The notes under the pieces: model-generated
Told to the model about the DNA's origin: nothing
The model's input: only the letters and a program-made list of their open reading frames with translations
Database searches by the model: none
DNA from: Xanthomonas campestris pv. campestris str. ATCC 33913
Lineage (GTDB): Bacteria > Pseudomonadota > Gammaproteobacteria > Xanthomonadales > Xanthomonadaceae
Reading direction: 5' to 3'
DNA length: 32,000 nt
Assembly: GCF_000007145.1 (NCBI RefSeq)
Contig: NC_003902.1
Location: forward strand, 2,576,497-2,608,496
Translations under genes and position numbers: made by a program
In this document: positions 13,414 to 30,571 of the stretch, one piece after another
Layout of the letters: every line of letters begins with the position of its first letter
How positions within the stretch are numbered: the first letter of the stretch is position 1

Positions 13414-13605
13414 GCACCACGTCCGCAACATCAGGCGCGGCGCGCATGCGTGCCGCCGCGCCGCTTGACACAACCGGGGCGTACAACGCTCCGGTGCAGC
13501 CACCGAGCACTGCCGCCCAAGTGGCATGAACGGACTGCAAGCCTTCGCACCTGGGTGCGGAGATAGCCCACCGCCGGGGCGTTGCCCCAGGCATCAGATG
13601 AGTAA

Positions 13606-14649: not shown

Positions 14650-14727
14650 CCCGTATTGTTCCGGCCGGCAGGCCGGCGTTCCACCATGGCGCGCTACCCT
14701 GTGCGCCACCTAGCAGGACGAGTAGCC

Positions 14728-15612: not shown

Positions 15613-15618
15613 CCGCGC

Positions 15619-16146
15619 ATGCCCGTCGAGCTGCGTGAGGTCCGCGACGCGGACATCCCGGCGATCACCGCGATCTACGCGGAGCAGATCGCCGGGTGCA
15701 ACACCTACGAATACGTCGCGCCGTCGGCCGAGCAGATGCGCGGCCGCGTGCGCGCCATCGTGGACGCCGGTTATCCGTATCTGGTGGCCGAACGCGATGG
15801 CGCGGTGATCGGGTACGCCTACGCAAGCAGCTACCGCGCACGCGCCGGCTACCGCTGGACGGTGGAAAATTCGATTTATCTGGCCGCTGCCGCGCAAGGA
15901 TGCGGCATCGGTTCGCAGCTGCTTGGCGCCTTGATTGCCGTCTGCGAGCAGCGCGGCTACCGGCAGATGATTGCCGTGATCGGCGATGCCACCAACCAGG
16001 CGTCACTGCGCCTGCATGAACGTTTTGAGTTTCGTACGGTCGGAGTCTTCACCGGACTGGGCCGCAAGCATGGCCGCTGGTTGGACGCGGTGCAGATGCA
16101 GCGCCCGCTCGGCTCCGGTCACACCGCCCCTCCTTCCGATGAATGA
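15619..16146 (+). CDS. GNAT family N-acetyltransferase (phosphinothricin/methionine-sulfoximine acetyltransferase-like)
   Basis: 175 aa. IREVRDADIPAITAIY...YLVAERDGAVIGYAYASSYRARAGYRWTVENSIYL...QGCGIGSQLL...HERFEFRTVGVF...GRWLDAVQMQR matches the PAT/YwnH-type GNAT pattern. Confidence 0.85.
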   Translation: MPVELREVRDADIPAITAIYAEQIAGCNTYEYVAPSAEQMRGRVRAIVDAGYPYLVAERDGAVIGYAYASSYRARAGYRWTVENSIYLAAAAQGCGIGSQLLGALIAVCEQRGYRQMIAVIGDATNQASLRLHERFEFRTVGVFTGLGRKHGRWLDAVQMQRPLGSGHTAPPSDE

Positions 16147-17371: not shown

Positions 17372-17418
17372 GTTGGGGGAGCGCGGCCGCCGCATCAGCA
17401 GTTGATGCGGTCCTACCG

Positions 17419-17504
17419 TTGTAGGAGCGCACCTGGACGCAATGGTGACTTGCGCGACTGACAGCTGGAATAGGCAGCCTGATCGCGCCCAACTACGCTC
17501 CTAC
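17419..17504. repeat. REP-like intergenic palindromic element (GTAGGAGCGCAC type)
   Basis: Lies in the convergent gap between TraB and the EEP gene. GTAGGAGCG (17421-17429) is repeated inverted as CGCTCCTAC (17496-17504). Internal GCGCA...TGCGC dyads are present, and an adjacent 8-bp hairpin CCGCATCA/TGATGCGG sits at 17390-17410. It resembles the GTAGGAGCGCAC...GTGCGCGAC repeats that I recall as abundant in Xanthomonas. Copy number cannot be checked here. Confidence 0.35.
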
Positions 17505-17518
17505 GACGAGGGCTGCTG

Positions 17519-18457
17519 CTACGGGGCGGCAGCCGTCTCCGGCGCGAATTGCAGGCGTACCCACACCCCGTAATGGTCCGAGGCCCAGCGGCCTTCGGCA
17601 TACGGGGTGTCGAACAGGATGCGCGCCTCGCGTGCGAGCAGGCGGTTCTGCTGGAAGAACACGTGATCGATGCGCGCGGGTTTGTCGAACACATGCAGGT
17701 TCAAGGTGCTGACAGTTGCATCGCTGTTGCGGTGCACGCTGCCATAGCTGTCGCCATAGCCCTTGCGTAGCGCTTCCAGATCCAGGGTATCGGCCGCAGT
17801 GTTGAAATCACCGGCGATCACCACCGGCGCCTGGTTGCTGTTGGACGCGATGAAGTCCAGCAAGTCGGCCACCTGGCGGGTGCGGGTCGCCGCACCGCGC
17901 GCATCGGACCGCTCGTTGAGATGCGTCACGTAGACGTTGACCGGCTGGCCATCCATATCAACCTGCAGATGCGCGGCCACGCGGTAATCGTCCAGCGGTT
18001 GCAGCAGGCGCTGATGCTGGGCCAGCACGCTGCGCTTGCTCAGCAGCGCGTTGCCATAGCGCTTGGGCGCGCCGGGCGGGTCGACCGATGCGAACGTGTA
18101 CGCGTAGCCAAGCCGACTGGCCAGCCAGGCGGCCTGATTCTCCACACTGCCGCGGCGTTCGATCACTTCCTGCAAGGCGATCACATCCGGCGCCAGCTGT
18201 TTGAGTTCCTTGGCGATATAGGCACGGCGTGCCGGCCAGTCTTCGCGGTCGTGATGCAGGTTGAGGGTGACCAGGGTCATCTCGCGCGGGGCCGCGCTGG
18301 CGGTTTGCTGCGAGCGCGATGTTTGTTCTGCGTTCTGGACGTTGGCTTGCTCCGCGTGCGCACCCGTGCAGGACAGGGCCAGCACCATCAACACACCGAA
18401 CCGGCCGCGATAGCGCCGCGACGTTGTTGCCCGCAACGACCGGCGCCACGTGTTCAT
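17519..18457 (-). CDS. Secreted endonuclease/exonuclease/phosphatase (EEP) family protein
   Basis: 312 aa from ATG 18457, which overlaps the upstream stop as ATGA. The signal peptide MNTWRR...VLMVLALSCTGAHA|EQ has AxA cleavage, with a possible lipobox. EEP motifs are present: TLVTLNLHH, DVIALQEV, VYVTHL, VIAGDFN, SDHYGVWV. The 613-aa track ORF (to 19360) is an artefactual 5' extension into the neighbouring gene. Confidence 0.85.
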   Translation of the reverse strand: MNTWRRSLRATTSRRYRGRFGVLMVLALSCTGAHAEQANVQNAEQTSRSQQTASAAPREMTLVTLNLHHDREDWPARRAYIAKELKQLAPDVIALQEVIERRGSVENQAAWLASRLGYAYTFASVDPPGAPKRYGNALLSKRSVLAQHQRLLQPLDDYRVAAHLQVDMDGQPVNVYVTHLNERSDARGAATRTRQVADLLDFIASNSNQAPVVIAGDFNTAADTLDLEALRKGYGDSYGSVHRNSDATVSTLNLHVFDKPARIDHVFFQQNRLLAREARILFDTPYAEGRWASDHYGVWVRLQFAPETAAAP

Positions 18458-21400
18458 TGCGCGGCCCGTTCGGCCCGCCGCACCGCGCTCGGCACGTCGA
18501 TCTGCACGGAGGCCGGCAACTGCTGGATGCGCAACTCGCCATTCTCCCACTGCACCGCCTCGCCATTGATGCTGGCCTTGCCCGGTTCGCCCTGATACGG
18601 CCAGGCAAACACCACGCCGCCGGGCGGCAGGATCAGGCCGGGCTGCAGCTGCAGCACCAGCTGCTTGTCGGTGCGCTGCAAGGTGTAGTTGAGGCGGCCA
18701 TAGGGCGTGCGCAGCTCGGCAATGCCAATGCCCTTGCCGTCGAACCAACGCGTTGGCGTGCCGGCGGCAATCACCAGGCTGGCGTCGGCCTCGCGCCCGT
18801 AGGCAAACATGTCCAGCACCGAGCGCACGAAGTCCGAAGCCACCCATGCATGCGGTAGGTCGCCAACGAAGAACGGCGTGCGCGGCGTACGCGAGACCAC
18901 TTCGGCCCACTGGTTCCAGGGCTGCGGCGCGCGGTCCTTGAAGAAGAACGCGGTGGCATCCCAGGCGCGGTCGCGCCAGCCCAGGCGCACGAATGCAGCC
19001 ACGTTGCGCCATTCGTACGGCGTGTAGTCCTTCCATTCGCGCTTGCTGTCGCGGCGATCGGTGAATTCCTTCCAGTACCGCTCGAAGGTGTTGTTCAACA
19101 GCTCCGGCGGCAGGCGCTGCTGCTCGCCACCGGGCGCCAGCGCGATGGTGGTGGAGGTTGCATCGAAGTCGCCCAGTTCCGCCGAACCGGGCAGGAAATC
19201 CAGCTGATGCTGGCGTACCGCCGCCGCCAGCGAGGCGGTGAGATCGCCGCTGAATTCGTCGCGGGCGGTGCTGAAGCGCGCAACCTCGTCGGGCTTGTCC
19301 AGCGCACCGGCCAACATCACCGCGTCCTTGTAGCCGCGCAGCGCCCAGAAGTTGTCCCAATACGAATGCACCGGCTTGGCCGAATAGCCTTCGTGGCTGA
19401 TCGACACCGGCATCATTCCGTAGAAAGCCGGGTTACGCATGAAGTTGTCTTCGGTGCGCTCGCTGGCGCGCAGCTTTTCCATGTAGTCGTACGCGCCGAG
19501 CACGTGCGGCCACATCTTTTCCAGGAACGGCTTGTCGCCGGTGTAGCGGTAGTACTCGGCGACGTTGAAGATCAGCTCGCCATGGCTGTCGTTTTCCGGC
19601 ACCGGGTCGCTGCCACGGTCGTCCACGCAGCACGGCACCATGCCGTCGGCAAATTGATACGGCGCAAACCAGTCGACGTAGTCACGCACCACGTCTTCGC
19701 GGCCGAGCCGCAGCAGGCCTTCGGAAATCATGGCGCCGTCGCGGATCCAGCTGCGCGAATATGAGCGCGTGCCCGGCTGCAGGCGCGGGCCGATGCGCGA
19801 GATCAGCATGTGCGCTAACGCGGTACGCAGCGTATCGACAACCGGCTTGCCTTCGGCCGGCACGCTGATGCGCACGCGATCGAGCTTGCCGCGCCACTGC
19901 TGGGCCACTTGCTGCTGCGCCTTGTCGGCATCGAAGCCGGCCGGCAGCTGCGCGCTGCCGGTCTGCGGAATGACCAGCGCAACCTCGCGGCTCTGGCCCG
20001 GCTCCAGCTTCCAGCGATACACCAGCACGCCCGAGGCCAGCCCGGTTTCGTCCTTGACCTGCGTGGTTGTGGGCAGCGTCGCGGCGGTGAGATGGGTGAC
20101 ATCCATGCCGCTGTCGAAGGCGCTGGCGAAGGCGGCATCCGGCCGCTGCGCGGCAAACACGCGCGGCTTGCCGTTGACGTTGACCTGCGCCCCGTCCACC
20201 GACAACTGCTCGATGCGGCTGATGCCGCCCAGGGTGTTGAGGAACTGCGCCGGCGGGTTGACCTGGAACGGCCGTACCGCCAATGCGAGGGTGAACTCGC
20301 GCGCGTCCTTGCCGGTATTGCGCAGCTGATAGCGCGCGACCAACTGTGCCTGATCAGGAGTGCCCTGCACGAAGCCGGTGATGCGCAGGTTCATGAGGTC
20401 GTGGTGCCAGTCGACGCTGGGGATTGGCAGGTAATCGTCCTGCAGGCTTTGTTCGCTGCTGACATCGGCCCAGCGCAACAGCTTGCCGCCGACACTGACG
20501 AACGGCTCCACGCTGAAACCGCCCTTGCCCACTTCCACCGCGCCGTCTTCGCCGATCAGGCCTTGCTCGGTGCCGCCATCCAGGCCGAGGATGGTCCAGT
20601 ACGGTTGCTCGCCGGAAAACCCGCGCGGAAAGTTGCCACGCGGCGATTGCGTCGCCAGCGATTTGATGAAGTCATTCGGCGTCGCGGCGAAGGCCAGCGG
20701 CTGCAGCTGCACTTCCTTGATGCCATAGCGCCAGTTGGGACCATCCTTGAGATCGAAACGCAGGTAGCGCGCCTCGGTATCCGGCAAGGCCAGCCAATCG
20801 GTGCCGCCGGCGCCGGCGATGACCGTGCGCAGGTCGCGCCAGCTACGCCCATCGCTGGACGACCGCACCACGTACTGCGATGCCTGCAGGCCCGGCACCC
20901 ACTGCACGATGGCACCGCCGAACTCGCGCACCTTGCCCAGGTCCAGGGTCACCGTCTGCTGTTTGACTGCGCCGCTGAGCCAGAAGGTGTCCGGCTTGCC
21001 ATCGGCCAGACGCTGCTCCAGCGCCGGTGCGGTGTCGGTAATGGCCTCGGCCTTCAACGGCGAGGTGTCCTCTGGCGGCAACGGGGTCAGGGTCAGGCGG
21101 TCGAAGCACACCGAGCCCTTGCCACCGACCTTGTTGTAGATGGTGAACTCGACATCGGCACTGCTGCGCAACTGCTTGTCCGCGCCTGGGCCCCAGGCCT
21201 TTTCGATGTTGCGCTTGCGGTAGTTGAAGGTGGTCCAGGTCTTGGGGAAAGTGAAGCCCGGCCGGTTGATCCACCACACGTTGTCGCCGCTGGCATCGAT
21301 CAACTTGACCTGCAGATCGTTGGACGGCGACTCGCCGCGTAGCGCAAAGCCAATGCGGTAGTTGTCCGGAAACTCGATCGGCAGGCTGCGGCGGATGCCG

Positions 21401-21618
21401 ACATAGCCAGACACGCCGTTGAAGTTGTAGTCCAGGCACAAGGCGTGGCCGCCGGAGGTGGTTGCTACCGGGCGCAGCGAGCCGCTGACCTGGTTGGAGA
21501 CCACCAGCCGCCACGCGGCGATGTCGTTGAATCCGTCGAGCACGCGCTCCTGCGCCTGTGCCGCACCCGCGGTGGCAACAGCGGCCATGGCAAACAGTCG
21601 CAGGAAAATTGGCTTCAC
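18454..21618 (-). CDS. Large secreted multidomain protein: N-terminal CBM-like beta-sandwich + F5/8 type C (discoidin/CBM32-like) domain + central beta region + putative (alpha/alpha)6 glycoside-hydrolase-like domain
   Basis: 1054 aa from GTG 21618, which overlaps the permease stop as GTGA. The signal peptide is VKPIFLRLFAMAAVATAGAAQA|QE. A discoidin-like segment lies at about aa 190-308 (…DGKPDTFWLSG…QTVTLDLGKVREFGGAIVQW…SQYVVRSSSDGRSWRDL…ARYLRFDL…GIKEVQL). The C-terminal half carries SWIRDGAM (nt 19732-19749), ENDSHGEL and YWDNFWALRGY, reminiscent of six-hairpin glycosidases (GH15-like W-x-RD-A). The catalytic assignment is inference. Confidence 0.8.
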   Translation of the reverse strand: MKPIFLRLFAMAAVATAGAAQAQERVLDGFNDIAAWRLVVSNQVSGSLRPVATTSGGHALCLDYNFNGVSGYVGIRRSLPIEFPDNYRIGFALRGESPSNDLQVKLIDASGDNVWWINRPGFTFPKTWTTFNYRKRNIEKAWGPGADKQLRSSADVEFTIYNKVGGKGSVCFDRLTLTPLPPEDTSPLKAEAITDTAPALEQRLADGKPDTFWLSGAVKQQTVTLDLGKVREFGGAIVQWVPGLQASQYVVRSSSDGRSWRDLRTVIAGAGGTDWLALPDTEARYLRFDLKDGPNWRYGIKEVQLQPLAFAATPNDFIKSLATQSPRGNFPRGFSGEQPYWTILGLDGGTEQGLIGEDGAVEVGKGGFSVEPFVSVGGKLLRWADVSSEQSLQDDYLPIPSVDWHHDLMNLRITGFVQGTPDQAQLVARYQLRNTGKDAREFTLALAVRPFQVNPPAQFLNTLGGISRIEQLSVDGAQVNVNGKPRVFAAQRPDAAFASAFDSGMDVTHLTAATLPTTTQVKDETGLASGVLVYRWKLEPGQSREVALVIPQTGSAQLPAGFDADKAQQQVAQQWRGKLDRVRISVPAEGKPVVDTLRTALAHMLISRIGPRLQPGTRSYSRSWIRDGAMISEGLLRLGREDVVRDYVDWFAPYQFADGMVPCCVDDRGSDPVPENDSHGELIFNVAEYYRYTGDKPFLEKMWPHVLGAYDYMEKLRASERTEDNFMRNPAFYGMMPVSISHEGYSAKPVHSYWDNFWALRGYKDAVMLAGALDKPDEVARFSTARDEFSGDLTASLAAAVRQHQLDFLPGSAELGDFDATSTTIALAPGGEQQRLPPELLNNTFERYWKEFTDRRDSKREWKDYTPYEWRNVAAFVRLGWRDRAWDATAFFFKDRAPQPWNQWAEVVSRTPRTPFFVGDLPHAWVASDFVRSVLDMFAYGREADASLVIAAGTPTRWFDGKGIGIAELRTPYGRLNYTLQRTDKQLVLQLQPGLILPPGGVVFAWPYQGEPGKASINGEAVQWENGELRIQQLPASVQIDVPSAVRRAERAAQ

Positions 21619-22451
21619 CCCTTCACACTCCCCAGCAGAAGACCTTGGATGTAGTAACGCTGCAGCGCCAGGAACAATAGCAGCACCGGAATCACCGTCA
21701 CCACCGCGCCGGCCATCATCAATTCCACGTCCATGATGTGCTCGCGCGACAATGCGGCCAGCGCCACCGGCAAGGTGTATTGCTCCTGGTCGGTCAGCAC
21801 GATCAGCGGCCACATGAAGTCGTTCCACGAGCCCATGAAGGTGAAGATGGTCAAGGTGACAAGCACCGGCTTGAGCATCGGCAGCACGATCTGGAAGAAG
21901 ATCCGCATCTCGCTGGCGCCATCGATGCGTGCCGCTTCGATCAGCTCATCGGGAATGCTGCGCGCGTACTGGCGCACCAAGAAGATACCGAACACGGTGG
22001 CCAGTGCCGGCACCACCACCCCGCCGATGTTGTTGACCAGATGCAGCTGCTTCATCAGCAGGAACAGCGGCAGCATCGCCACCTGCGCCGGGATCACCAG
22101 CGCGGCCATCAGGATCTTGAAGATGCGCTCGCGGCCGATGAACTGCAGCTTGGCAAACGCGTAGCCGGCCATGGTGTTGATCAGCAACGAGCCCAGCGTG
22201 ATCAGCCCCGACACCATCAGGCTGTTGGCGAAGTTGCGCGCCATGCCGGTGCGGGCGAACAGCTCGTGGTAGTTGGCCAGGGTGAACGCCGACGGCAGCA
22301 TCGGCGGCGGAAACCGGCTGGCCTCGCCGGTGGGCATGAACGACACCGACAGCATCCACAACAGCGGCGCCAGGCTGACCAGCGCCAGCAGCAACAACCC
22401 GCCATTGATCAGCAGGCCATTCCAGCGCGATTCGCCCACATCACGACTCAT
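21615..22451 (-). CDS. Carbohydrate ABC transporter permease (MalG/CUT1 type)
   Basis: 278 aa from ATG 22451 (ATGA overlap with the upstream stop), with six hydrophobic segments and the EAA loop IEAARIDGASEMRIFFQIVLPMLKP. The 405-aa track ORF is a 5' over-extension. Confidence 0.9.
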   Translation of the reverse strand: MSRDVGESRWNGLLINGGLLLLALVSLAPLLWMLSVSFMPTGEASRFPPPMLPSAFTLANYHELFARTGMARNFANSLMVSGLITLGSLLINTMAGYAFAKLQFIGRERIFKILMAALVIPAQVAMLPLFLLMKQLHLVNNIGGVVVPALATVFGIFLVRQYARSIPDELIEAARIDGASEMRIFFQIVLPMLKPVLVTLTIFTFMGSWNDFMWPLIVLTDQEQYTLPVALAALSREHIMDVELMMAGAVVTVIPVLLLFLALQRYYIQGLLLGSVKG

Positions 22452-23332
22452 ATCAGGTCCTTCTTGCGCCCGAAGCGCAGCATCACGGTGGTCACGGTCA
22501 GGATGATCAGGAACAGCAGGAACGCCACCGCCGACGCGCGGCCGAGGTTCCACCACTTGAAGCCTTCCTCGAACATGAAATACAGCACGCTCACGGTGCT
22601 TTGCAGTGGGTCGCCGCGGGTCATCACATAGGGTTCGGCGAACAGCTGGAAATAACCGGAGATGGTGATCACACCGACCACCATCAGCACCGGGCCGAGC
22701 ATCGGCAAGGTGATGTGCAGGAACTGCTTCCAGCGCGAGGCACCGTCGATGCGCGCCGCCTCGTAGAGGTCTTGCGGGATCGCCTGCAGGCCGGCCAGGA
22801 AGATCACCATGTTGTAGCCGAAGTTCTTCCACACCGCGAACAGCATGATGGTCGGCATTGCCCAGCGCGGATCACCCAGCCAGTCGATCGGGGCGATGCC
22901 CAGGTGGCTCAGGCCGAAATTCACCAGGCCGTACTTGATGTGGAACAGGTAGCGCCAGATCACCGCGACTGCCACCAGCGTGGTGACCACCGGCGCGAAC
23001 AACGCGGTGCGGAACAAGGCCTTGAACCGCGAAGCCTTGGCATTGAGCAGCAGCGCCGCGCCCAGCGACACCGCGATGGACATCGGTACGCCCAGCAGCA
23101 CGAAGTAGGTGGTATTCCACAGCGACTTCCAGAACAGCGGCGTCTGCAGCAGCTCGATGTAGTTGCCCAGGCCGACGAAGCGCAGATGGCTGCTGTCGGC
23201 CAGTGCGTACAGGTCGAAGTCGGTGACGCTGAGCACCAGCGCGGCGAACACCGGCACGCCGAAGAACATGCCCAGCACCAGGATCGACGGCGCGGCGAAG
23301 ACCCAGCCGGCCACGGAGTTGCGCTTCATCAT
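22448..23332 (-). CDS. Carbohydrate ABC transporter permease (MalF/CUT1 type)
   Basis: 294 aa with the EAA loop LYEAARIDGASRWKQFLHITLPMLGP. Its start ATG overlaps the SBP stop (ATGA). Confidence 0.9.
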   Translation of the reverse strand: MMKRNSVAGWVFAAPSILVLGMFFGVPVFAALVLSVTDFDLYALADSSHLRFVGLGNYIELLQTPLFWKSLWNTTYFVLLGVPMSIAVSLGAALLLNAKASRFKALFRTALFAPVVTTLVAVAVIWRYLFHIKYGLVNFGLSHLGIAPIDWLGDPRWAMPTIMLFAVWKNFGYNMVIFLAGLQAIPQDLYEAARIDGASRWKQFLHITLPMLGPVLMVVGVITISGYFQLFAEPYVMTRGDPLQSTVSVLYFMFEEGFKWWNLGRASAVAFLLFLIILTVTTVMLRFGRKKDLI

Positions 23333-24675
23333 CGGGCAGCTCCTTCAGCCGCTGCATTCGCCGGCGCAGGCATCGGCGTGGCCGGTGCGGCCGCCGGGCC
23401 GACATGCCCGCCTTCCTGTTCGTAGATCCAGCGGCGCTTGGCCAGAATCTCGTCCACGCGTTTGTCCAATTCCTGCACGGCGTCCTCGTGCGATTGCCCG
23501 CCGCGCACCACGCGCTCGGTCACCAGGCGCATCTCCTGCACGATGCGCTCCCACTCCAGCACCTTCGGCGTGGCCTTGACCCGCTCGAGCTGGTCGCCGA
23601 AGGCATGCGCCAGCTCGTCATTGGCCAGCGACGGCAACTTCCAGGTGCTGCGGCGCGGCGGCAGGTCGCCGATGATGGCGTGGAAGCGCGCCTGCACGGT
23701 CGGCTGGGACAGATATTCGATCAGCTTCCAGGCGGCGTCCTTGTGCTGGGACGACTTGAAGATCACCAGGCTGGAGCCACCCGCAATGCCGGCACCCAGG
23801 CCGTTGGGGCCCGGCAACGGCGCGGTGCCCCACTTGCCTTCCATGCCCGGCGGCTGGCGCAGCTTGAACTCGCGCACGTTCCAGGGCCCGGACAGGTAGA
23901 ACGCGTAGTAGCCGTTGAAGAATTCGTACCAAACGTTGGAGACCTGGGTCTCGGAGACCTTGGGTGCCCAGCCCTTCTGGTACATGGTGTCGTAGAAGCC
24001 CAGCGCCTTGCGGAAGCCTTCTCCACGGAAGTTGCCGTAGTTATCGTGGTCGCGTAGCAGGCGGTCGTCCTGCTGCAGCGCAAACGACAGCTGCTGCTCG
24101 AACTCGTTGAGCGGCATCAGGATGGCGTAGCGGTCCGGGCCGACATGGCGCTTGATCGCCGCCATCACCTGCTCCATCTCCGCCCAGGTCTTGGGCATCT
24201 CGGTATAGCCGGCTTCGCGCAGCAAATCCTTGCGATAGAACAACAGGCGCGTGTCCACGTACCACGGCACCCCGTACAAGGTGCCGTCGACCAGATTGGT
24301 GTCCCATACGCCGGGGAAGTAGTCCTTGGGATCGACGATGCTCGAGCGCGCCACATACGGCTGCATCGGCTCCAGCGTGTCCAGCAGCGCGAATTCCGGC
24401 AGCCAGGTGTTGCCGAGCTGGCACACATCCGGCAGCCCATCGGCGGCGAAGGCGGTGAGCAGCTTTTCGTGCGCGGCCGTCATCGGGATGTTCTGCACAT
24501 CCACCTTGATGCCGGGATTCTGCCGCTCGAACTCATCCACCAGCTCGGCCACCACCTCCGCTTCCTTGCCCATCGCCCAGAAGCGCACGGTGGTCTGGCC
24601 CTGCTCGGAACGTTCACATCCCGCCGCACCCAGACACAGTGCGGCGGCCATCATCATCAGTTTCAAAAGGCGCAC
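23329..24675 (-). CDS. Extracellular solute-binding lipoprotein of a sugar ABC importer (family 1 SBP)
   Basis: 448 aa from GTG 24675, 3 nt after the upstream stop. It has a lipoprotein signal (M)RLLKLMMMAAALCLGAAG|C and an SBP_bac_1-like core (…TVRFWAMGKEAEVVAELVDEFERQNPGIKVDVQNIP…WYVDTRLLFYRKDLL…). The C-terminus is an Ala/Pro-rich tail. Confidence 0.9.
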   Translation of the reverse strand: MRLLKLMMMAAALCLGAAGCERSEQGQTTVRFWAMGKEAEVVAELVDEFERQNPGIKVDVQNIPMTAAHEKLLTAFAADGLPDVCQLGNTWLPEFALLDTLEPMQPYVARSSIVDPKDYFPGVWDTNLVDGTLYGVPWYVDTRLLFYRKDLLREAGYTEMPKTWAEMEQVMAAIKRHVGPDRYAILMPLNEFEQQLSFALQQDDRLLRDHDNYGNFRGEGFRKALGFYDTMYQKGWAPKVSETQVSNVWYEFFNGYYAFYLSGPWNVREFKLRQPPGMEGKWGTAPLPGPNGLGAGIAGGSSLVIFKSSQHKDAAWKLIEYLSQPTVQARFHAIIGDLPPRRSTWKLPSLANDELAHAFGDQLERVKATPKVLEWERIVQEMRLVTERVVRGGQSHEDAVQELDKRVDEILAKRRWIYEQEGGHVGPAAAPATPMPAPANAAAEGAAR

Positions 24676-24678
24676 GGA

Positions 24679-26316
24679 TTACTCGGGTTTGGGGCGTTGC
24701 GAGGAGTGTTGCCGCTGCGACGGGTCCTGCTGCGCCTGGGCAGCGGCCGCACGCGATTCGGCCATGCCCAGCGCGCGCGCTGCGGCGGCCTGCTCGTCCT
24801 TCTTGGGCAGCGGCTGCGGCTCGCCGTCGGGCGTGAGCCAGCCACCGGTGAAGCCGGCGCGTTCCAGGCCGGTACGGATGTAGGCGTTCTTCTTCATCAC
24901 GTTCCAGACAAATTCGTTCTGGTAGTTGGCGATCATCGCCAGGATCGGGCCCTGGTCGATGGCGATGTAGTCGCTGGCCACCCAGCCACGGTCCGGCACC
25001 ATGCGCCCGGTCTTGAGCGGGATGTCGTAGTTGAAGCTGGGGTTGAACGAATCCAGGAAACCATAGCTCGAATACAGGAAGTCGCCATAGCGCTTGTGCA
25101 TCTCTTCGGTGGCCGGAATCACCACCTCCGGTGCGAACACGATCGAGGAAATCGCCGCGGTTGGCGCGATGGTGCCGTCGTCGAAGTTCTCGCGCAGGCC
25201 GGCGCCGCGTGAAGAGTAATGGCGGAACTGGCGCTGCTCGCCGCGGTATTCCTGGCTGGTGTTCTGCGGGCCGTCGCCGGCGGTGAGGCCCCAGACGTTT
25301 TCGCCATAGTCCTTCCACTTCATCGGGTTATCGATGGCGTAGTCGCGCTGGGCCAGCGTGGCGCGGCGGCTGTTGAGGAAGTAGTCGATGCCGCGCTCGC
25401 GCATGTACTGGTCCTGGATATCGCGGAAGTCGATCCAGACATGGCTGTACTGGTGGCCGAACATCGGGCCGAAGGACAGGTATTCCTGGCCCTGGTAGAC
25501 GCCCCAGTCGTTGTTGTAGGTGCGGGTCCAGACCGTCCACGCATCCGGCTCCACGCCGTGCGTGGGCGAGCCGAGCGCCAGGATGTACAGCATCATGGCT
25601 TCGTTGTAGCCCATCCAGTCGTGGTCGATGAAGCCGCTCTCGGGGAACCAACCCATCGAGATCAGCGGCGCCCGCTGCTGCAGCCAGCGCCAGTCCACAC
25701 GCTTGTACAGCGTGTCGGCGATCTGGCGGATTTCCTTTTCGCGCGGGTCGTCACCGTCGTAGTACGACTGGGTGAACAGCACGCCCATCATCAGCAGCGC
25801 GGTGTCCACGCTCGACAGCTCGACCCAGCTGTCATAGCGGTTGCCCTGCTGCATATCCAGAAAGTGATAGTAAAAGCCCTTGTAGCCGGCCTTACCGGTC
25901 CGCTGCGGCCCCATCGGCGCATCGCGGAAGAATTTGAGGGTGGTCAAGGTGCGGTCGATCGCCTGATTGCGGCTGACCCAGCCGTTCTCGATACCGATCG
26001 GATACGCGGTGAGCGCAAAGCCCACCGAGGCGATGCTGGCGAACGGACGCGAGGGAAACCGGTCCGGCGACAGCCCATTGAGTTCGTTGGTGGTGTCCCA
26101 GAAAAACTGGAAGGTGCGGCGTTCGATATCGGAAAACAGCGGCGGCAGCGGCGGCTTGACCGGCTTGGGCGGAATCTGTGCTTCCACCAGGATCACTTTC
26201 ACGGGTGCCTTCTTTTCAGCCACCTTGGGCTCCTCGGCCTGTTTGCAGGACGCCAGCAACAGCGCCCCCACCATCAGTGGAACTGCCAGCCAACGCGATG
26301 TCTTACCCCTGTTCAT
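24679..26316 (-). CDS. Lipoprotein of the PF10091 'glucoamylase-like' / CAZy GH144 family (predicted beta-1,2-glucanase-type enzyme)
   Basis: 545 aa from ATG 26316, preceded by GGGGGGCGG. The lipoprotein signal is MNRGKTSRWLAVPLMVGALLLAS|C. The conserved blocks are those I associate with the DUF3131/GH144 (alpha/alpha)6 fold: FFWDTTNELNGLSPDRFPS, SVGFALTAYPIG, GFYYHFLD, MGYNEAMMLYILALGSP, FGHQYSHVWIDFR, WGLTAGDGP and DGTIAPTAAISSIVFAPE. The upstream GTG 26352 would place the LacI operator inside the coding region and is rejected. Confidence 0.8.
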   Translation of the reverse strand: MNRGKTSRWLAVPLMVGALLLASCKQAEEPKVAEKKAPVKVILVEAQIPPKPVKPPLPPLFSDIERRTFQFFWDTTNELNGLSPDRFPSRPFASIASVGFALTAYPIGIENGWVSRNQAIDRTLTTLKFFRDAPMGPQRTGKAGYKGFYYHFLDMQQGNRYDSWVELSSVDTALLMMGVLFTQSYYDGDDPREKEIRQIADTLYKRVDWRWLQQRAPLISMGWFPESGFIDHDWMGYNEAMMLYILALGSPTHGVEPDAWTVWTRTYNNDWGVYQGQEYLSFGPMFGHQYSHVWIDFRDIQDQYMRERGIDYFLNSRRATLAQRDYAIDNPMKWKDYGENVWGLTAGDGPQNTSQEYRGEQRQFRHYSSRGAGLRENFDDGTIAPTAAISSIVFAPEVVIPATEEMHKRYGDFLYSSYGFLDSFNPSFNYDIPLKTGRMVPDRGWVASDYIAIDQGPILAMIANYQNEFVWNVMKKNAYIRTGLERAGFTGGWLTPDGEPQPLPKKDEQAAAARALGMAESRAAAAQAQQDPSQRQHSSQRPKPE

Positions 26317-26330
26317 CCGCCCCCCACTCG

Positions 26331-26344
26331 TGTAATCGATTACA
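26331..26344. promoter_or_regulatory. LacI-family operator O1, perfect 14-bp palindrome TGTAATCGATTACA
   Basis: Exact self-complementary 14-mer that fits the LacI/GalR consensus TGnAAnCGnTTnCA at all 10 specified positions. It lies 15-28 nt upstream of the GH144-like start codon. Its left half TGTAAT doubles as a -10-like hexamer on either strand. Confidence 0.6.
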
Positions 26345-26381
26345 TCTCGCACGCAAACCTACCCTATCCGGGCGCCGACTT

Positions 26382-26419: not shown

Positions 26420-29398
26420 TTACCAGTTCAGACCGAAGGCCAGACGGAAGGTGCGCATCGGCGATGCCAGCACGCCGGTTGGCGTGCCGTATGCCGTGTT
26501 CAAGTCACCGAGTGTCCCGGTCTCGCCGTTAAAGTTGGCGTAGTTCACCCAATTGAACACGTTGAGGATATCCGCACGGACGTTGAATTTGACACCGCCA
26601 CCGGTATCCCATTCTTTATTGGCCGCAATGCTGAACTCCTTGTAGCCCAGCGTGCCGTCCGGCTTGAACTGCACGATGTAGCACTGGTCGTTGCCGGCCA
26701 GACAGTTCTGCCCGTAGCGCGCGGTCTGGCTGGCAAGCGACAACTTGCCGGACAGCTTGATCTCATACGGCAGCTCGTAGATGCCGGTTACGACCAGACG
26801 GTTCTTGGCAATACCGCCGGCCTCGCGCCAGCCGTAGTCTTCGACGCGCTCGCGGTCCAGTGCGTAGTGCTCGCCGAACTGGCGGTTCTCCTTGGCATCG
26901 GAGAAGGTGTAGGCCACGGTCAGACCCCATCCGGATTCTTCGTCGTAGGGCTTCTCGATCTGCAACGCGAGCTGGTTGTTGCGGGTTTCCACACCATTGG
27001 TGCCGAGCACGATGGCGCTGTAGCCGTCCGGGCCGTCGGTCGGCGAGCCGGAGGTGGTGCCCGGCAGGAAGAACGAGCCATCGGGCAGCCGGTTGCCGCG
27101 CACGAAGGCGAAGCCGTCATGACTTTCGATCCGGCTCAGGGTCACGTCGGTGAACCAGTCCTGGCCCCATAGCGGCACCATGTTGCGCATGCCGATGCTG
27201 AATTGGTCGGAGTACGGGGTCTTGATGTTGTTGTCGATCAGGTAGACCTCACGACCACCGCCGCCGGCGCTGTTGGCGGTGAGGGTGTTCAGGCCTTCCT
27301 GCGTGCTGTAGGCCGGGTTCCATGCCGTACATGGGTCGCCCAGGCAGGCCGGGTTGTTGGCACTGGTGAAGTAGTAGCTATACGAATTGAACGAGTTGTT
27401 GAGCTGCTCGAGCGCCAGGTAGTCGAAGATGTTGCGGTCATAGGCACGCCCGGCACCGCCGTAGATCACGTGGGCCTGGTCGCCGAACAGGTCGTACGAC
27501 GCACCCAGGCGTGGCTGCCAGGCGTTCTTGAACGCCTTGCGGTTGTTGCCGGTGCTGATGAAGTTGTTGATGTTGTAGTTGGCGTTCTGCAGGTTGGGCC
27601 AGTTCTGCAGCGCACCGGCCACATCCGACGGGGTCACGAAGTCCAGGAACGCCGGGCTTTCTTCATAGTCGTAGCGCACGCCCAGGTTCAAGGTCCAGTG
27701 CTCGTTGACCTCCCAGTCGTCCTGCAGGTAGATGCCGTACTGCTTGTTCTTGGACACCACCGAGCCGCCGCCTTCGGTCAACGGCGCACCAAAGCGCACC
27801 CGGTACGGCGTTTCGACATCGGAGAGGATGTTGTAGTAGTACTGCGGGTTGGCCGGGTTGAACTGGGTGGAATCCAGATCGATGCTCTTGAACTTCACGC
27901 CCATCTTGACGGTGTGCGCGCCATGCCATTCCAGGCTGTTCAAGGTCAGGTCGTCCTGGAAGGTCCAGCCCTTCTGGCCCTTGCGCTGGAAGCTGCTGCC
28001 GGCGCCGGCAGCGAGCACGTCGGTCTCGTTGCCACGGTTGGGCGTGTAGCTGAGCACGTAGCCCGTGCCGTCGTTGAGCGGCGCCTGGTTCCAGAACGCG
28101 CTCTCGTAGCTGAGGTTGGCTTCGTTGAGGAAGTTGGCACCGCTGTACTGCCAGCGCAGGTTGGCGCGCTTTTCTTCCTGGCCGTTGACGCTACCGTGCT
28201 CGAAGGTCGAGGTCTGGCCGACGTCGTTGAGCTCGTCTTCCTTGCGGTACTTGCCGGTCAGCTCGAACAGGTTGTTGTCGCCAATGGTCCAGTCGATCTT
28301 GCCGAAGTACAGGTCTTCCTTGAACGGGGTGCTGTAGGTAGCCACCAGCGGCTGCAGCTGCGCCGGCAGCTGGTCGATGCGGTCCGAGTAGATCGAGCCA
28401 GGAATCACCACGTTGGGGGTGGTGTATTCCTTGGCTTCATAGGCAATGAAGAAATGTGCCTTGTCCTTGAGGATCGGGCCGCTGAAGGTCGCACCGTACT
28501 GGGTTTCCTCGAAGTCGTCGCGCACGCCGGCCTTCTTCTCCAGCGGGCTCTCTTCGCGCCAGCCATCGTTGCTGGTATCCCAGAAGAAGCTGCCGTGGAA
28601 ATCGTTGGTGCCGGACTTGGACGAGGCCACGATGGCGGCGCCGCTGACCTGGTCGAACTCGGCCTTGTAGTTGGAGGTGATGACCTTGTATTCGCCGATC
28701 GCCGACTGCGGGAACGGGTTGCCGCGGCTGGAATCCTGGCCGCTGACGCCGCCGGTCAGCACGTAGTTCTTCTGGCTGACGCCATCGATGTAGACATTGG
28801 TGCCTTCAGCCGAAGTGGCGCCCGAGCGCACCTTGGTGGTGCCGTTGGCATCACGGGTGAACTGCACGTTCGGCACGGTGTCGGCCAGCTCCAGGAAGTT
28901 GCGCGTGGCACGCGGCAGGTTCTGGATCTGCACGTTGGAAATATACGTCGCGTTCTCGGAGGTGCGCGTCTCCACCAGCACCGGCGGCGCCTTGACCTGC
29001 ACCGCGTCCAGCGTGGTGGCGTTACCACCTGCGGCCGTGGCCGGCTCGCCGCCGACGCCCAGGTTCAAGGTGGCGGTCTGGCCGACCTGCACGGTGACGT
29101 TCTGCGAGGTGGTCTGCCCATTGGCGGTGACATCCAGGCGGTACGAACCCGGCGGCAGGCCGCCAACCGAATAGCCGCCATTGGTGACCTGCACGGTGCG
29201 GGTCAGGCCGGTGGCCAGATTGGTGGCGGTGACCTGGGCCTGGGCAGCAGGTGCGGAGTCGACCGTGACCTGGCCGCGGATGGTCGCAGCGGTGCTCTGC
29301 GCGAACGCGGGCGCGGCGCCCAGCAACAGGCAGCTGGCCAGGGCGCAGCTGAGCAGCTTGCGCGCCGGGCTGGCGGAATGGGGGTGGTGGTGGCTCAT
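26420..29398 (-). CDS. Oar-like TonB-dependent outer-membrane receptor with N-terminal carboxypeptidase-regulatory-like domain
   Basis: 992 aa from ATG 29398, with GGAGGG 6 nt upstream. The signal is MSHHHPHSASPARKLLSCALASCLLLGAAPAFA|QS. A CarbopepD_reg-like beta-sandwich follows (TIRGQVTVDS...GGYSVGGLPPGSYRLDVTANGQ), then a plug region (TLDAVQVKA...ETRTSENATYISNVQIQNLP), a long beta-barrel and the terminal aromatic motif ...RLAFGLNW. The 47-aa extension of the track ORF is rejected. Confidence 0.9.
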   Translation of the reverse strand: MSHHHPHSASPARKLLSCALASCLLLGAAPAFAQSTAATIRGQVTVDSAPAAQAQVTATNLATGLTRTVQVTNGGYSVGGLPPGSYRLDVTANGQTTSQNVTVQVGQTATLNLGVGGEPATAAGGNATTLDAVQVKAPPVLVETRTSENATYISNVQIQNLPRATRNFLELADTVPNVQFTRDANGTTKVRSGATSAEGTNVYIDGVSQKNYVLTGGVSGQDSSRGNPFPQSAIGEYKVITSNYKAEFDQVSGAAIVASSKSGTNDFHGSFFWDTSNDGWREESPLEKKAGVRDDFEETQYGATFSGPILKDKAHFFIAYEAKEYTTPNVVIPGSIYSDRIDQLPAQLQPLVATYSTPFKEDLYFGKIDWTIGDNNLFELTGKYRKEDELNDVGQTSTFEHGSVNGQEEKRANLRWQYSGANFLNEANLSYESAFWNQAPLNDGTGYVLSYTPNRGNETDVLAAGAGSSFQRKGQKGWTFQDDLTLNSLEWHGAHTVKMGVKFKSIDLDSTQFNPANPQYYYNILSDVETPYRVRFGAPLTEGGGSVVSKNKQYGIYLQDDWEVNEHWTLNLGVRYDYEESPAFLDFVTPSDVAGALQNWPNLQNANYNINNFISTGNNRKAFKNAWQPRLGASYDLFGDQAHVIYGGAGRAYDRNIFDYLALEQLNNSFNSYSYYFTSANNPACLGDPCTAWNPAYSTQEGLNTLTANSAGGGGREVYLIDNNIKTPYSDQFSIGMRNMVPLWGQDWFTDVTLSRIESHDGFAFVRGNRLPDGSFFLPGTTSGSPTDGPDGYSAIVLGTNGVETRNNQLALQIEKPYDEESGWGLTVAYTFSDAKENRQFGEHYALDRERVEDYGWREAGGIAKNRLVVTGIYELPYEIKLSGKLSLASQTARYGQNCLAGNDQCYIVQFKPDGTLGYKEFSIAANKEWDTGGGVKFNVRADILNVFNWVNYANFNGETGTLGDLNTAYGTPTGVLASPMRTFRLAFGLNW

Positions 29399-29456
29399 TG
29401 GTCCCTCCAGGGATCGATATCTTGTTGTTGTGGGCACTAAGGTCTTGCAGGAACAA

Positions 29457-29477
29457 CCGCTGCGGGGGAGGCAGCGG
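29457..29477 (-). terminator. Weak hairpin between lacI and the TBDR gene (possible partial terminator)
   Basis: CCGCTGC(29457-29463)/GCAGCGG(29471-29477), a 7-bp stem with a 7-nt loop. On the minus strand TTGTTCC follows, a poor U-tract. Confidence 0.25.
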
Positions 29478-29504
29478 GAGCGGACAGGACGTCCGCGAAA
29501 AGGG

Positions 29505-30527
29505 TCAGGCGCCGGGCTCGCCGGCTCCGCAGGACGCACGCACCACCAGCTCCGGGGTGAGCAACTGGCGGATGCCGTCGTCGTGGCCGGGCTGGTCCAC
29601 CAGCCGCATCAGACGGGTCATCGCCTGCTCGCCAAGGCGCGCAATGCTGACCCGCATCGTGGTCAGCGCGGGGTGCACGAAGCGCGCCAGCGGGATGTCG
29701 TCGAACCCGGCCAGCGCCACGTCGTCGTGCACCGACACATCCGCCTGGGCGAAGGCGTACAGGCAGCCGAGCGCGGTCATGTCATTGGCAGCGAAGACCG
29801 CATCGGGCAGATCCCCGGCGGCCAGCATGGCAAGGCCGGCGCGATGGCCGGAGGCTTCGTCGAAGTCGCCGGCGAATTCGAGCCCCTCCGCTCCGCCCGC
29901 ATGGCCGGCGATCGCGTCACGGAAGCCGCGCAAGCGCTCGCGCGCATCGAAGTTCAGCGCCGGCCCGCCGATGAAGGCGATGCGGCGGTGCCCGGCAGCA
30001 AGCAGGTGCTCGGTCATCGCCATTGCGCCGGCGTGGTCGTCGATGCTCAGCACCGGGTAGTCGGCGCCCGGCAGATGCGCGTTGATCAGGACGGTGGGCA
30101 GTGCCTGCGGCAGGTTGTCGGTGAGAAAACCCGGCTGCTCGGCGTACGGGGACAACACCAGCAAGCCATCCACGCGGCCGCGCATGGAACGCAGCGCCCT
30201 GCCCTGGGCTTCGGGATCGCCGTGGTAGCTGGAGACCAGCAAATGCTGCCCGGCCGCACGCGCCGCCCCATCGATGCCGCGAATCAGTTCGGAAAAGAAC
30301 TCGCCGTACAGATCAGGCAGCACCACACCCAGGGTCTGGGTGCGCCGGCTGCTGAGGCTGCGTGCCGCCGCATGCGGGCTGTAGCGCAGGCGTTCGGCCA
30401 CGTCCAGGACCACCTGGCGCACCGGCCCGGCGACGTTGTCGTGCCCATTGAGCGCCCGCGATACCGTGGCAACGGAGACGCGTGCTTCTCGAGCGACATC
30501 TTTGATGGTGACCGCACCTTTGGCCAT
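29505..30527 (-). CDS. LacI family transcriptional regulator
   Basis: 340 aa from ATG 30527, with GGAGGG 8 nt upstream. The N-terminal HTH MAKGAVTIKDVAREARVSVATVSRALNGHDNV is the LacI/PurR signature. The remainder is a periplasmic-binding-protein-like sugar-binding fold (…LGVVLPDLYGEFFSELIRGI…IAFIGGP…). Confidence 0.9.
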   Translation of the reverse strand: MAKGAVTIKDVAREARVSVATVSRALNGHDNVAGPVRQVVLDVAERLRYSPHAAARSLSSRRTQTLGVVLPDLYGEFFSELIRGIDGAARAAGQHLLVSSYHGDPEAQGRALRSMRGRVDGLLVLSPYAEQPGFLTDNLPQALPTVLINAHLPGADYPVLSIDDHAGAMAMTEHLLAAGHRRIAFIGGPALNFDARERLRGFRDAIAGHAGGAEGLEFAGDFDEASGHRAGLAMLAAGDLPDAVFAANDMTALGCLYAFAQADVSVHDDVALAGFDDIPLARFVHPALTTMRVSIARLGEQAMTRLMRLVDQPGHDDGIRQLLTPELVVRASCGAGEPGA

Positions 30528-30571
30528 TCGGGTCGCCCTCCGCGACCGACTTCCCAAAATCTGGCGCGGAC

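Follow-up and report, generated by a model that had tools for sequence, protein, structure and literature searches.

A predicted exported six-hairpin glycosidase-like protein encoded with the endo-β-1,2-glucanase XcSGL in Xanthomonas campestris pv. campestris

What does the large protein encoded beside the endo-β-1,2-glucanase XcSGL contribute to the metabolism of β-1,2-glucans? The question is raised by a 32,000-nucleotide stretch of the genome of strain ATCC 33913 of Xanthomonas campestris pv. campestris (NC_003902.1, positions 2,576,497 to 2,608,496; hereafter the window, with coordinates counted from its first nucleotide). The gene in question is present on the minus strand as the reading frame of 1054 amino acids that a preliminary description of the window had reported. 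By position, it corresponds to XCC2203, because the glycoside hydrolase family 144 (GH144) gene located four genes upstream is XCC2207. On computational grounds, we consider it likely that XCC2203 is a functional enzyme that processes carbohydrates in the course of β-1,2-glucan catabolism. Our analysis yielded its domain architecture, a set of conserved putative active-site loops, a weak but consistent relationship to GH15 and a tight linkage to β-1,2-glucan genes; from these, we infer catalysis, the catalytic residues, the anomer specificity and the substrate.

β-1,2-glucans, their cyclic forms included, protect against osmotic stress and take part in interactions with hosts; their enzymology has been assembled one family at a time (GH144, GH162, GH186, GH189 and new SGL families). 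To our knowledge, none of the enzymes published so far takes off the α-1,6 linkage of the α-1,6-cyclised β-1,2-glucan CβG16α. This glucan is needed for the virulence of Xanthomonas (PMC11228985). The fold and probable chemistry of XCC2203 are of a known kind; its family, the way in which its domains are combined and its part in the metabolism of β-1,2-glucans seem to be undescribed, as judged from Pfam, NCBIfam and PDB, not from CAZy or dbCAN. No entry of these three databases covers the barrel described below, and a full-text literature search, whose coverage excluded subscription-only papers, found no paper on the protein or its orthologues.

Architecture and putative active site of XCC2203

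Full-length homologues of XCC2203 occur in many phyla and range from 99% down to ~35% amino acid sequence identity, indicating that XCC2203 is a real gene and not a chance reading frame in high-GC DNA. Its GTG start codon overlaps the TGA stop codon of the upstream permease gene (GTGA), and its own TGA stop codon overlaps the ATG of the next gene (ATGA), indicating that it is translationally coupled on both sides. The latter overlap also indicates that the downstream gene, which encodes a phosphatase-family protein, belongs to the same operon.

The protein is predicted to be exported, either to the periplasm or to the medium. Its N-terminus (MKPIFLRLFAMAAVATAGAAQA|QE) resembles a Sec signal without a lipobox, in line with the signal peptide and AQA|QE cleavage noticed previously. 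A short hydrophobic segment opens every one of the close homologues and is also found in 95 of the 103 distant full-length homologues; these calls were made by eye and with a simple hydropathy heuristic. In the AlphaFold2 (AF2) model, the predicted local distance difference test (pLDDT) score is <50 at residues 1-20.

Modelling with AF2 predicts that XCC2203 comprises five folded parts in addition to the signal peptide (Table 1). The whole-protein model, built on 33 homologues, has a pLDDT of 81 and a predicted template modelling (pTM) score of 0.79. The β-rich N-terminal module of ~160 residues in the preliminary description is modelled as a β-sandwich and resembles a carbohydrate-binding module (CBM): Pfam CBM_11 matches 15 of the 33 homologues weakly at E <= 1 (best E, 5.9e-5), with no match to the window protein itself at this threshold. 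The discoidin- or CBM32-type module that had been proposed to follow was recovered by Pfam PF00754, which matches residues 200-299 well above its cut-off (55 bits versus 28.2; E 1.1e-14), and among PDB entries the family profile recovers CBM32 modules such as 4zy9 and 2rva at E 3e-9. The remainder of the protein is more complex than had been thought. The C-terminal ~450 residues do contain the suspected helical barrel, but they also include a separate β-domain at the C-terminus, and the β-sandwich that precedes the barrel had not been mentioned. A barrel-only model based on 50 more diverse sequences reached a pLDDT of 86.5 and a pTM of 0.89 and contains 12 helices, the number expected of the (α/α)6 (six-hairpin) barrel for which a structure prediction had been recommended. 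Within the family, the barrel is the most conserved domain.

All of the motifs quoted in the preliminary description are found in XCC2203, namely AQA|QE (residues 20-24), LCLDYNFNGVSGYVGIRR (60-77), VEFTIYNKVGGKGSVCFDRLTL (156-177), YVVRSSSDGRSWRDL (249-263), ARYLRFDL (283-290), SWIRDGAM (623-630), ENDSHGEL (675-682) and YWDNFWALRGY (753-763). The abundance of Trp and Tyr attributed to the C-terminal part is real but modest (7.8% of the last 450 residues versus 5.9% overall).

Residue conservation was analysed in 116 diverse full-length family members, ranging from Xanthomonas to Ignavibacteria. Approximately 60 residues are >=97% conserved across the family and cluster in the loops that carry the catalytic residues in GH15. 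In the barrel, ~35 residues reach this level, including ten carboxylates in loops that form the active sites of GH15 enzymes. Conserved in at least 113 of the 116 sequences are R618, Y620, R622, W624, R626, D627, C663, E675, D677, S739, S741, H742, E743, Y745, W754, D755, D817, D819, R855, Y868, E869, R871, W904, E906, D920, P922, H923 and W925.

To place these residues, we mapped XCC2203 onto the GH15 dextran dextrinase by HMMER alignment, allowing for a 19-residue numbering offset and taking the residue roles from PMC12446779. In dextran dextrinase, Asp543 binds O4 and O6 of the sugar in the -1 subsite (PMC12446779); R626 and D627 of the corresponding XCC2203 motif are present in all 116 sequences. 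The general acid of dextran dextrinase, E671, is located in the α5→α6 loop (PMC12446779), and in the loop of XCC2203 that aligns with it, H742 and E743 are each conserved in 115 of the 116 members. The general base of GH15 enzymes is located in the α11→α12 loop (PMC12446779). In our barrel model, this loop spans residues 895-923 and carries W904, E906, D920, P922 and H923, of which E906 is conserved in 115 of 116. From the alignment and the loops of the model, we tentatively take E743, perhaps together with H742, as the general acid and E906 as the base, with E869, D755 and D920 as alternatives.

Three acidic residues had been singled out beforehand as candidates. Two of them, E675 (115 of 116) and D677 (116 of 116), are essentially invariant, but the third, E681, is not (Glu in 72 and Gln in 43 of the 116 members), and we reject it as a catalytic residue on account of the Gln. 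W754-D755 in the 'YWDNFW' segment was also considered as the general acid, because it is analogous to W-E and W-x-D motifs; it was set aside since the alignments to GH15 and GH94 put the acid loop at SISHEGY, with D755 kept as an alternative.

Two further observations concern the conserved loops. The segments of low AF2 confidence (window ~18856-19787) coincide with the strictest motifs, RSYSRSW, SISHEGY, GDFDATS and WAE…GDLPH. Because low confidence here coincides with the strongest conservation, this suggests that they may be mobile active-site loops or lids that become ordered on substrate binding. In addition, a P-C-C-V-D-D motif is found at residues 662-667 (window 19618-19635), in which C663 is conserved in 115 of the 116 members and position 664 is only Cys or Val. 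An invariant Cys is unusual in the barrel of an exported glycosidase, and it may serve a structural, metal-binding or catalytic purpose.

Family distribution and gene neighbourhood

A search of representative proteins clustered at 50% identity found 2708 clusters at E <= 1e-3 and 941 at E <= 1e-30. Members of the best 150 clusters are mostly 1000-1120 amino acids in length and share the same ~320-residue N-terminal part. As the preliminary description had anticipated for such genes, their public names are mostly 'discoidin domain-containing' or F5/8 type C domain protein, or hypothetical protein; in JGI records, 'Glucoamylase and related glycosyl hydrolases' or 'F5/8 type C domain/Amylo-alpha-1,6-glucosidase' is used now and then. 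The taxa represented include Gemmatimonadota, KSB1, Ignavibacteria, Kiritimatiellia, Acidobacteriota, Binatia, Verrucomicrobiota, Bacteroidota, Competibacteraceae and a metagenome-assembled genome (MAG) labelled Anaerolineae.

In the window, the gene order is LacI regulator–Oar-type TonB-dependent receptor (TBDR)–GH144–solute-binding protein (SBP)–permease–permease–XCC2203, followed by the phosphatase-family gene. A GH144 endo-β-1,2-glucanase and a sugar ATP-binding cassette (ABC) importer are thus encoded together, the combination by which a β-1,2-glucan (SGL) cluster is recognised. A scan with one genome per species detected relatives of XCC2203 in at least 597 stretches, of which the best 80 were read. 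By title, all 80 are from Lysobacterales or unclassified MAGs, except for one Nocardiopsis and one Duganella MAG. Searches with the window proteins (tblastn) found the order TBDR–GH144–SBP–permease–permease–XCC2203 homologue in 71 of these loci, and the other nine are on contigs truncated upstream; hence, the order is kept in all 71 loci with enough flanking sequence.

We also sampled 12 loci from other phyla. Five have the order LacI–Oar-type TBDR–GH144–SBP–permease–permease–XCC2203 homologue, followed by GH1, a MalK-type ATPase and, in three of the five, also a large GH94 gene. The remaining loci have one arrangement each: GH144–GH94–GH144–homologue–(GDSL+GH3)–SBP–permeases; GH144–homologue–GH35–GH144–SBP; GH144–GH144–GH3–homologue–SBP–permeases–ROK kinases–TBDR; homologue–GH94; SBP–permeases–homologue with a GH94 fragment nearby; a GDSL-homologue fusion followed by SBP–permeases–GH1; and an orphan (L085). 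A β-1,2-glucan-associated gene (GH144, GH94, GH1/GH3 or GH35) or an ABC-importer cassette therefore accompanies the family in 11 of the 12 loci, and the GH94 genes in L081-L083, L088 and L089 carry Pfam GH94 models. Co-occurrence with GH144, a check proposed in the preliminary description, proved to be very strong, since to the 71 of 71 Lysobacterales loci can be added 8 of the 12 loci from other phyla with GH144 within 10 kb. Many of these loci have their own GH144, GH94, GH1/GH3 and, in one case, GH35 genes, which argues that the XCC2203 family must contribute a different activity.

A LacI gene is found at the equivalent place in L081, L083, L088, L090 and L091, and in these Gemmatimonadota-like loci, the operon is likewise headed by LacI and an Oar-like gene. 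These heads in other phyla indicate that the whole seven-gene cassette, beyond XCC2203 alone, is conserved across phyla.

Esterase genes recur near the family. A GDSL-lipase is fused to an XCC2203 homologue (P0298; L092 3447-7253), a GDSL::GH3 fusion directly follows the homologue in the KSB1 locus (L082 13247-16075), and an esterase directly follows it in L088 (13636-14664). Because esterases lie beside or are fused to the family repeatedly, this hints that acyl substituents of natural β-1,2-glucans (succinyl or acetyl) may be removed in the same pathway.

Some of the taxon labels are implausible. The locus titled Nocardiopsis yanglingensis A18 (L028) has the gene order and identities of Stenotrophomonas maltophilia-group loci, and the 'Anaerolineae' MAG (L083) carries a TonB-dependent outer-membrane gene. 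L042 (the Duganella MAG), P0008 and P0038 belong to the same group, and these labels look like the result of contamination or mis-binning.

Relatives of the barrel and possible function

When the whole protein and the family profile were compared with PDB sequences, only CBM32 matches to the discoidin domain were obtained. With a barrel-only family profile, the best PDB match was the GH15 dextran dextrinase 9ju0 (E 0.005); next came a rhamnosidase of GH78, MmpH and a glycosidase related to GH15. The barrel-only Foldseek search also put 9ju0 first (E 8e-5; TMq 0.51), with GH78, GH100, GH63, GH125, GH95 and MmpH close behind and GH94 at rank 24. Both sequence and fold thus point to the family that the W-x-R-D-G-A motif had been taken to signal. 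The remaining sequence similarities are all below threshold and all to six-hairpin families of inverting α-glycosidases. NCBIfam TIGR01577, a GH15-like 'oligosaccharide amylase' model, matches residues 619-722 (31.2 bits versus a cut-off of 820.7; E 8.7e-8), and Pfam GDE_C (PF06202) matches residues 611-710 over profile positions 16-114 of 367 (17.4 versus 21 bits). Bac_rhamnosid6H (GH78; PF17389) scores 15.1 bits, below the gathering score of 24.5. Among the 33 homologues, weak Pfam matches are to Bac_rhamnosid6H in 30, GDE_C in 28 (best E, 3e-6), the GH95 catalytic domain in 16 and MGH1-like in 2. No catalytic model of Pfam or NCBIfam exceeds its cut-off for XCC2203, in agreement with the earlier failure to name a GH family by eye. 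XCC2203 is therefore a six-hairpin glycosidase-like protein outside the Pfam and NCBIfam families tested, whose nearest known relative is, weakly but consistently, GH15.

Characterised GH15 enzymes of clan GH-L, such as the Gluconobacter dextran dextrinase 9ju0 and the Kribbella isomaltose glucohydrolase 5z3a, share with XCC2203 the series of β-sandwich N-domain, helical linker and 12-helix barrel that marks the bacterial type. Also common to both are W-x-R-D at α2 and P-E-N-D-S-x-G in the α3→α4 loop, apparently together with an S-I-x-x-E/D-x-Y loop between α5 and α6 that would bear the acid and, by model topology, an invariant Glu in the α11→α12 loop. The differences are as follows: identity is ~15% and the TM-score ~0.5 (E-values 0.005 and 8e-5, as above), 'WEE' of GH15 is replaced by 'SHE', XCC2203 has extra CBM11-like, CBM32 and C-terminal β-domains, and its genomic context is that of β-1,2-glucan rather than of starch, dextran or trehalose. 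The GH133 amylo-α-1,6-glucosidases (GDE_C) and archaeal-type glycogen-debranching enzymes (GDE) match weakly over the first third of the barrel. GH133 is an exo-α-1,6-glucosidase family, and thus has the type of activity that we propose below for XCC2203, but the score is sub-threshold, only ~100 of the 367 profile positions are aligned, and the domain context is different. The accessory enzymes of SGL/SOGP clusters described by the Nakajima laboratory (the GH144 sophorohydrolase BDI_3064, the GH35 β-1,2-glucosyltransferase IaSGT and GH3/GH1 β-glucosidases acting on β-1,2-glucooligosaccharides, Sopn) are likewise encoded beside GH144 and a Sopn ABC importer, and have no sequence relationship to XCC2203, which like them is expected to be a specialist enzyme associated with β-1,2-glucan. 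Homologues of XCC2203 co-occur with such enzymes (GH35 in L084; GH1 or GH3 in L081, L082 and L086), again implying that they must fill a different role.

GH94 requires separate consideration. With the whole model, GH94 phosphorylases head the Foldseek results (E 2e-14 to 1e-12; TMt 0.5-0.57; 10-13% identity), ahead of GH116, GH78, GH95 and GH65, and alignments to GH94, GH65 and GH78 enzymes cover 800-900 columns. This rank reflects the β-sandwich/linker/barrel/β-domain architecture that XCC2203 has in common with GH94 enzymes, including cellobiose and chitobiose phosphorylases, the 1,2-β-oligoglucan phosphorylase (SOGP) 5h42 and a domain of cyclic β-1,2-glucan synthase (8rf0). The β-1,2-glucan theme is also shared, and the R-D and acid loops align roughly: when four GH94 sequences were compared by hhalign, in a weak alignment (probability of 10.8%), their 'GDWND' acid loop fell on the SISHEGY loop and their 'GGQYTH' region near Y868-E869. 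However, XCC2203 is predicted to be exported, while the known GH94 phosphorylases named here are cytoplasmic. Membership in GH94, which the whole-model search had prompted us to consider, was rejected in view of the low hhalign probability, the rank of 24 in the barrel-only search and the lack of any match at E <= 1 to the Pfam GH94 models PF06165 and PF17167 in the 33 homologues. Counting against it, too, are the genuine GH94 genes that adjoin XCC2203 homologues in several loci of other phyla, as the two are evidently not interchangeable.

Which linkage, then, might XCC2203 cleave? Acting together, the GH144 enzyme CpSGL and the β-glucosidase BtBGL break CβG16α down to 11 glucose plus a 'non-degradable glucopentaose' (bioRxiv 10.1101/2023.11.26.568766; 10.1101/2025.04.21.649730), as described by the laboratory that also characterised XcSGL. 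The undegraded pentasaccharide indicates that the α-1,6 linkage resists the known enzymes. A hydrolase for this linkage would fit XCC2203, because the protein is predicted to be exported, is nearest to inverting α-glucoside hydrolases and has a predicted -1 pocket that would grip O4 and O6 of glucose. GH15 includes isomaltose glucohydrolase and glucodextranase. That XCC2203 is an exported GH15-like hydrolase of an unclassified family with specificity for an α-linkage seems to us a reasonable possibility, though somewhat short of an even chance. Going further, we suggest tentatively that it founds a new GH family and is the missing enzyme for the α-1,6 closure linkage, in CβG16α as well as in the glucopentaose.

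Under this proposal, a GH15-type pocket would hold one glucosyl residue through the binding of O4 and O6 by R626 and D627. E743 in the α5→α6 loop, possibly helped by H742, would protonate the glycosidic oxygen, and E906 in the α11→α12 loop would activate water, so that the reaction would be inverting and proceed by single displacement. The glucan may be held or shaped by the CBM11-like and CBM32-like domains. XCC2203 would thereby cleave what the neighbouring GH144 enzyme and β-glucosidases cannot; the likeliest substrate would be the single α-1,6 linkage of α-1,6-cyclised β-1,2-glucans, for example CβG16α of Xanthomonas, or of a limit oligosaccharide derived from them. The remaining β-1,2-oligosaccharides could then enter through the co-encoded ABC importer.

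The family is large, unnamed and spread across phyla, and in a model pathogen one member lies beside the characterised XcSGL, which makes XCC2203 a concrete candidate, amenable to cloning, for founding a new GH family and perhaps for supplying the missing step. If the proposal is correct, a catabolic or recycling pathway for α-1,6-cyclised β-1,2-glucans would be completed in many bacterial phyla, an analytical and synthetic tool for cyclic glucans would become available, and thousands of 'discoidin domain-containing protein' labels would be open to re-annotation.

Several findings weigh against the α-1,6 hydrolase. Many phyla in which the family occurs are not known to encounter α-1,6-cyclised glucans, and a pair of CBM-like domains would be more fitting for a polymeric substrate than for a pentasaccharide. 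The likeness to GH15 lies under every curated threshold (for TIGR01577, 31 bits against 820), and Pfam Glyco_hydro_15 has no match at E <= 1 in any of the 33 homologues. In the sole residue-level alignment, the general-acid Glu of GH15 pairs with H742, which is no carboxylate, and E743 comes one position later. The base was assigned from loop topology alone, and conservation is just as high at E869, D755, D817, D819 and D920, which are alternatives to it. The invariant loops (611-625, 740-747, 815-829 and 900-921) are where AF2 confidence drops to its lowest. Finally, the whole-protein fold search puts the GH94 β-glucoside phosphorylases first, which leaves room for a β-specific enzyme.

Such an enzyme, a β-specific exo-hydrolase of β-1,2-glucans and hydrolytic cousin of the GH94 phosphorylases, is possible and almost as likely as the α-1,6 hydrolase. 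It might release glucose or sophorose from non-reducing ends, debranch β-1,6 linkages of osmoregulated periplasmic glucans (OPGs) or open cyclic β-1,2-glucans. The order of β-sandwich, linker helix, barrel and C-terminal β-domain in XCC2203 is that of GH94, the leading whole-model matches include 8rf0 and 5h42, and the neighbouring enzymes all act on β-1,2 linkages; moreover, the proximity of the phosphate-binding 'GGQYTH' of GH94 to the invariant Y868-E869 is the pattern expected if the base of a hydrolase replaces phosphate. These points have to be set against the barrel-only ranking, in which GH15 is first, and against the poor hhalign probability and lack of Pfam GH94 matches noted above. 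Furthermore, linear as well as cyclic β-1,2-glucans are already substrates of GH144 and the loci usually possess GH1/GH3 β-glucosidases, so that another β-1,2 enzyme looks redundant. We regard as unlikely a transglycosylase or phosphorylase, possibly a retaining one, that remodels periplasmic β-1,2-oligosaccharides by changing chain length or by forming or opening rings. Dextran dextrinase, the closest relative, is itself a transglucosidase, and the mechanism cannot be read from the conserved GH15 residues (PMC12446779). In addition, the overall fold resembles GH94 and GH65 phosphorylases, and β-1,2-glucan biology already includes unusual transglycosylases (GH186 XccOpgD, GH189 and GH35 SGT). 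Nevertheless, the locus, with its LacI regulator, TBDR and ABC importer, is catabolic, both GH15 catalytic loops contain invariant carboxylates, and the known phosphorylases of this fold are cytoplasmic, in contrast to XCC2203.

The two remaining explanations are less probable still. One is that the substrate is an unrelated plant cell-wall or microbial glycan, such as an α-L-rhamnoside, α-L-fucoside or α-mannoside, and that the linkage to β-1,2-glucan genes is incidental. The weak Pfam matches to GH78 and GH95 models, the GH78, GH95, GH125 and GH100 barrels with Foldseek E-values near that of GH15, the many glycans bound by CBM32 and CBM11 domains and the orphan homologue in L085 would all be compatible with this. 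We nevertheless consider it improbable, because the linkage to GH144, GH94 and ABC-importer genes persists across six or more named lineages, in many cases with the genes overlapping or adjoining one another, and no other polysaccharide-specific genes recur in the loci. The other, a non-catalytic glucan-binding protein or lectin with a dead six-hairpin domain, can draw on the two CBM-like domains and on the change of the canonical GH15 'WEE' acid motif to 'SHE'. It is very improbable, since the barrel is the most conserved domain and its near-invariant residues, with the ten loop carboxylates among them, are maintained from Xanthomonas to Ignavibacteria.

The operon and its surroundings

Coordinates of XCC2203, its domains and motifs, and the other genes of the operon are given in Table 1. 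The GH144 protein of the window is 100% identical to AAM41487.1 over residues 73-498; AAM41487.1 is XcSGL (XCC2207), a characterised endo-β-1,2-glucanase, for which biochemical data and the structure of a Sop7 complex (8XUL) are available (PMC12102758). In the Oar-type protein, the Pfam scan found no Plug domain, consistent with the report of 2007 that XCC2208 is without a canonical plug domain (PMC1790865).

Table 1. Features of the XCC2203 operon in the window, listed in the order of transcription
Feature	Coordinates	Strand	Remarks and basis
LacI-family regulator, upstream of operon	29505..30557	-	Start codon uncertain; Pfam LacI + Peripla_BP_3
Oar-type TonB-dependent outer-membrane protein (XCC2208 by position)	26420..29539	-	Start codon uncertain; Pfam CarboxypepD_reg + OMP_b-brl_4
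GH144 endo-β-1,2-glucanase XcSGL (XCC2207)	24679..26352	-	Lipoprotein, lipobox LLLASC; Pfam PF10091, 2e-90
Solute-binding protein of sugar ABC importer	23329..24675	-	Pfam SBP_bac_1, 3.9e-44
ABC permease 1	22448..23332	-	Pfam BPD_transp_1
ABC permease 2	21615..22451	-	Stop overlaps XCC2203 start; Pfam BPD_transp_1
XCC2203 (by position)	18454..21618	-	1054 aa, GTG start; open reading frame list
Predicted Sec signal peptide, residues 1-22	21553..21618	-	Cleavage AQA|QE, no lipobox; sequence read by eye
N-terminal β-sandwich, CBM11-like, residues 25-180	21079..21546	-	AF2 strands
Discoidin/F5_F8_type_C (CBM32-like) domain, residues 190-306 (AF2)	20701..21051	-	Pfam PF00754 + AF2
β-sandwich 'N-domain' ahead of barrel, residues 340-551	19966..20601	-	AF2
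Linker helix 564-579 + 12-helix (α/α)6 barrel 588-938, putative catalytic domain	18805..19929	-	AF2, Foldseek
W624-I-R626-D627-G-A motif, start of helix α2, predicted -1 subsite	19732..19749	-	Aligns to WVRD543 of dextran dextrinase
P-E675-N-D677-S-H-G motif, α3→α4 loop	19579..19599	-	Aligns to PENDSQG of dextran dextrinase
S-I-S-H742-E743-G-Y motif, α5→α6 loop (728-752), predicted general-acid loop	19384..19404	-	Aligns to SIWE671DMY of dextran dextrinase
W904-A-E906, α11→α12 loop, predicted general base	18901..18909	-	Loop topology of barrel model
C-terminal β-sandwich domain, residues 939-1041	18496..18804	-	AF2, pLDDT >90
Exported endonuclease/exonuclease/phosphatase-family protein, 312 aa	17519..18457	-	Lipobox-like LALSC

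The Xanthomonas operon does not contain the GH94 phosphorylase, GH1 β-glucosidase and MalK-type ATPase genes that trail the XCC2203 homologue in other phyla, which implies that the cytoplasmic steps are either encoded elsewhere in this strain or absent. The phosphatase-family gene at its end is kept in 30 of the 80 Lysobacterales loci, mainly in Xanthomonas and Stenotrophomonas and otherwise in a few MAGs of unclassified Lysobacteraceae or Proteobacteria and in one record titled Nocardiopsis. The 12 loci from other phyla all lack it. We speculate that its product might act as a phosphodiesterase and strip phosphoglycerol-type substituents from periplasmic glucans. A scan of positions 17300-18600 for promoters and terminators found none.

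Beyond the operon, the longest opposite-strand reading frames at 13594-14709 and 14710-15897 match no Pfam family and look like shadow frames of high-GC genes. The plus-strand regions 13606-15612 and 15986-17371 encode a PAD_porph-family deiminase, a carbon-nitrogen hydrolase and a TraB/GumN-family protein. The deiminase is possibly agmatine-deiminase-like and, with the carbon-nitrogen hydrolase, may form a putrescine-pathway pair.

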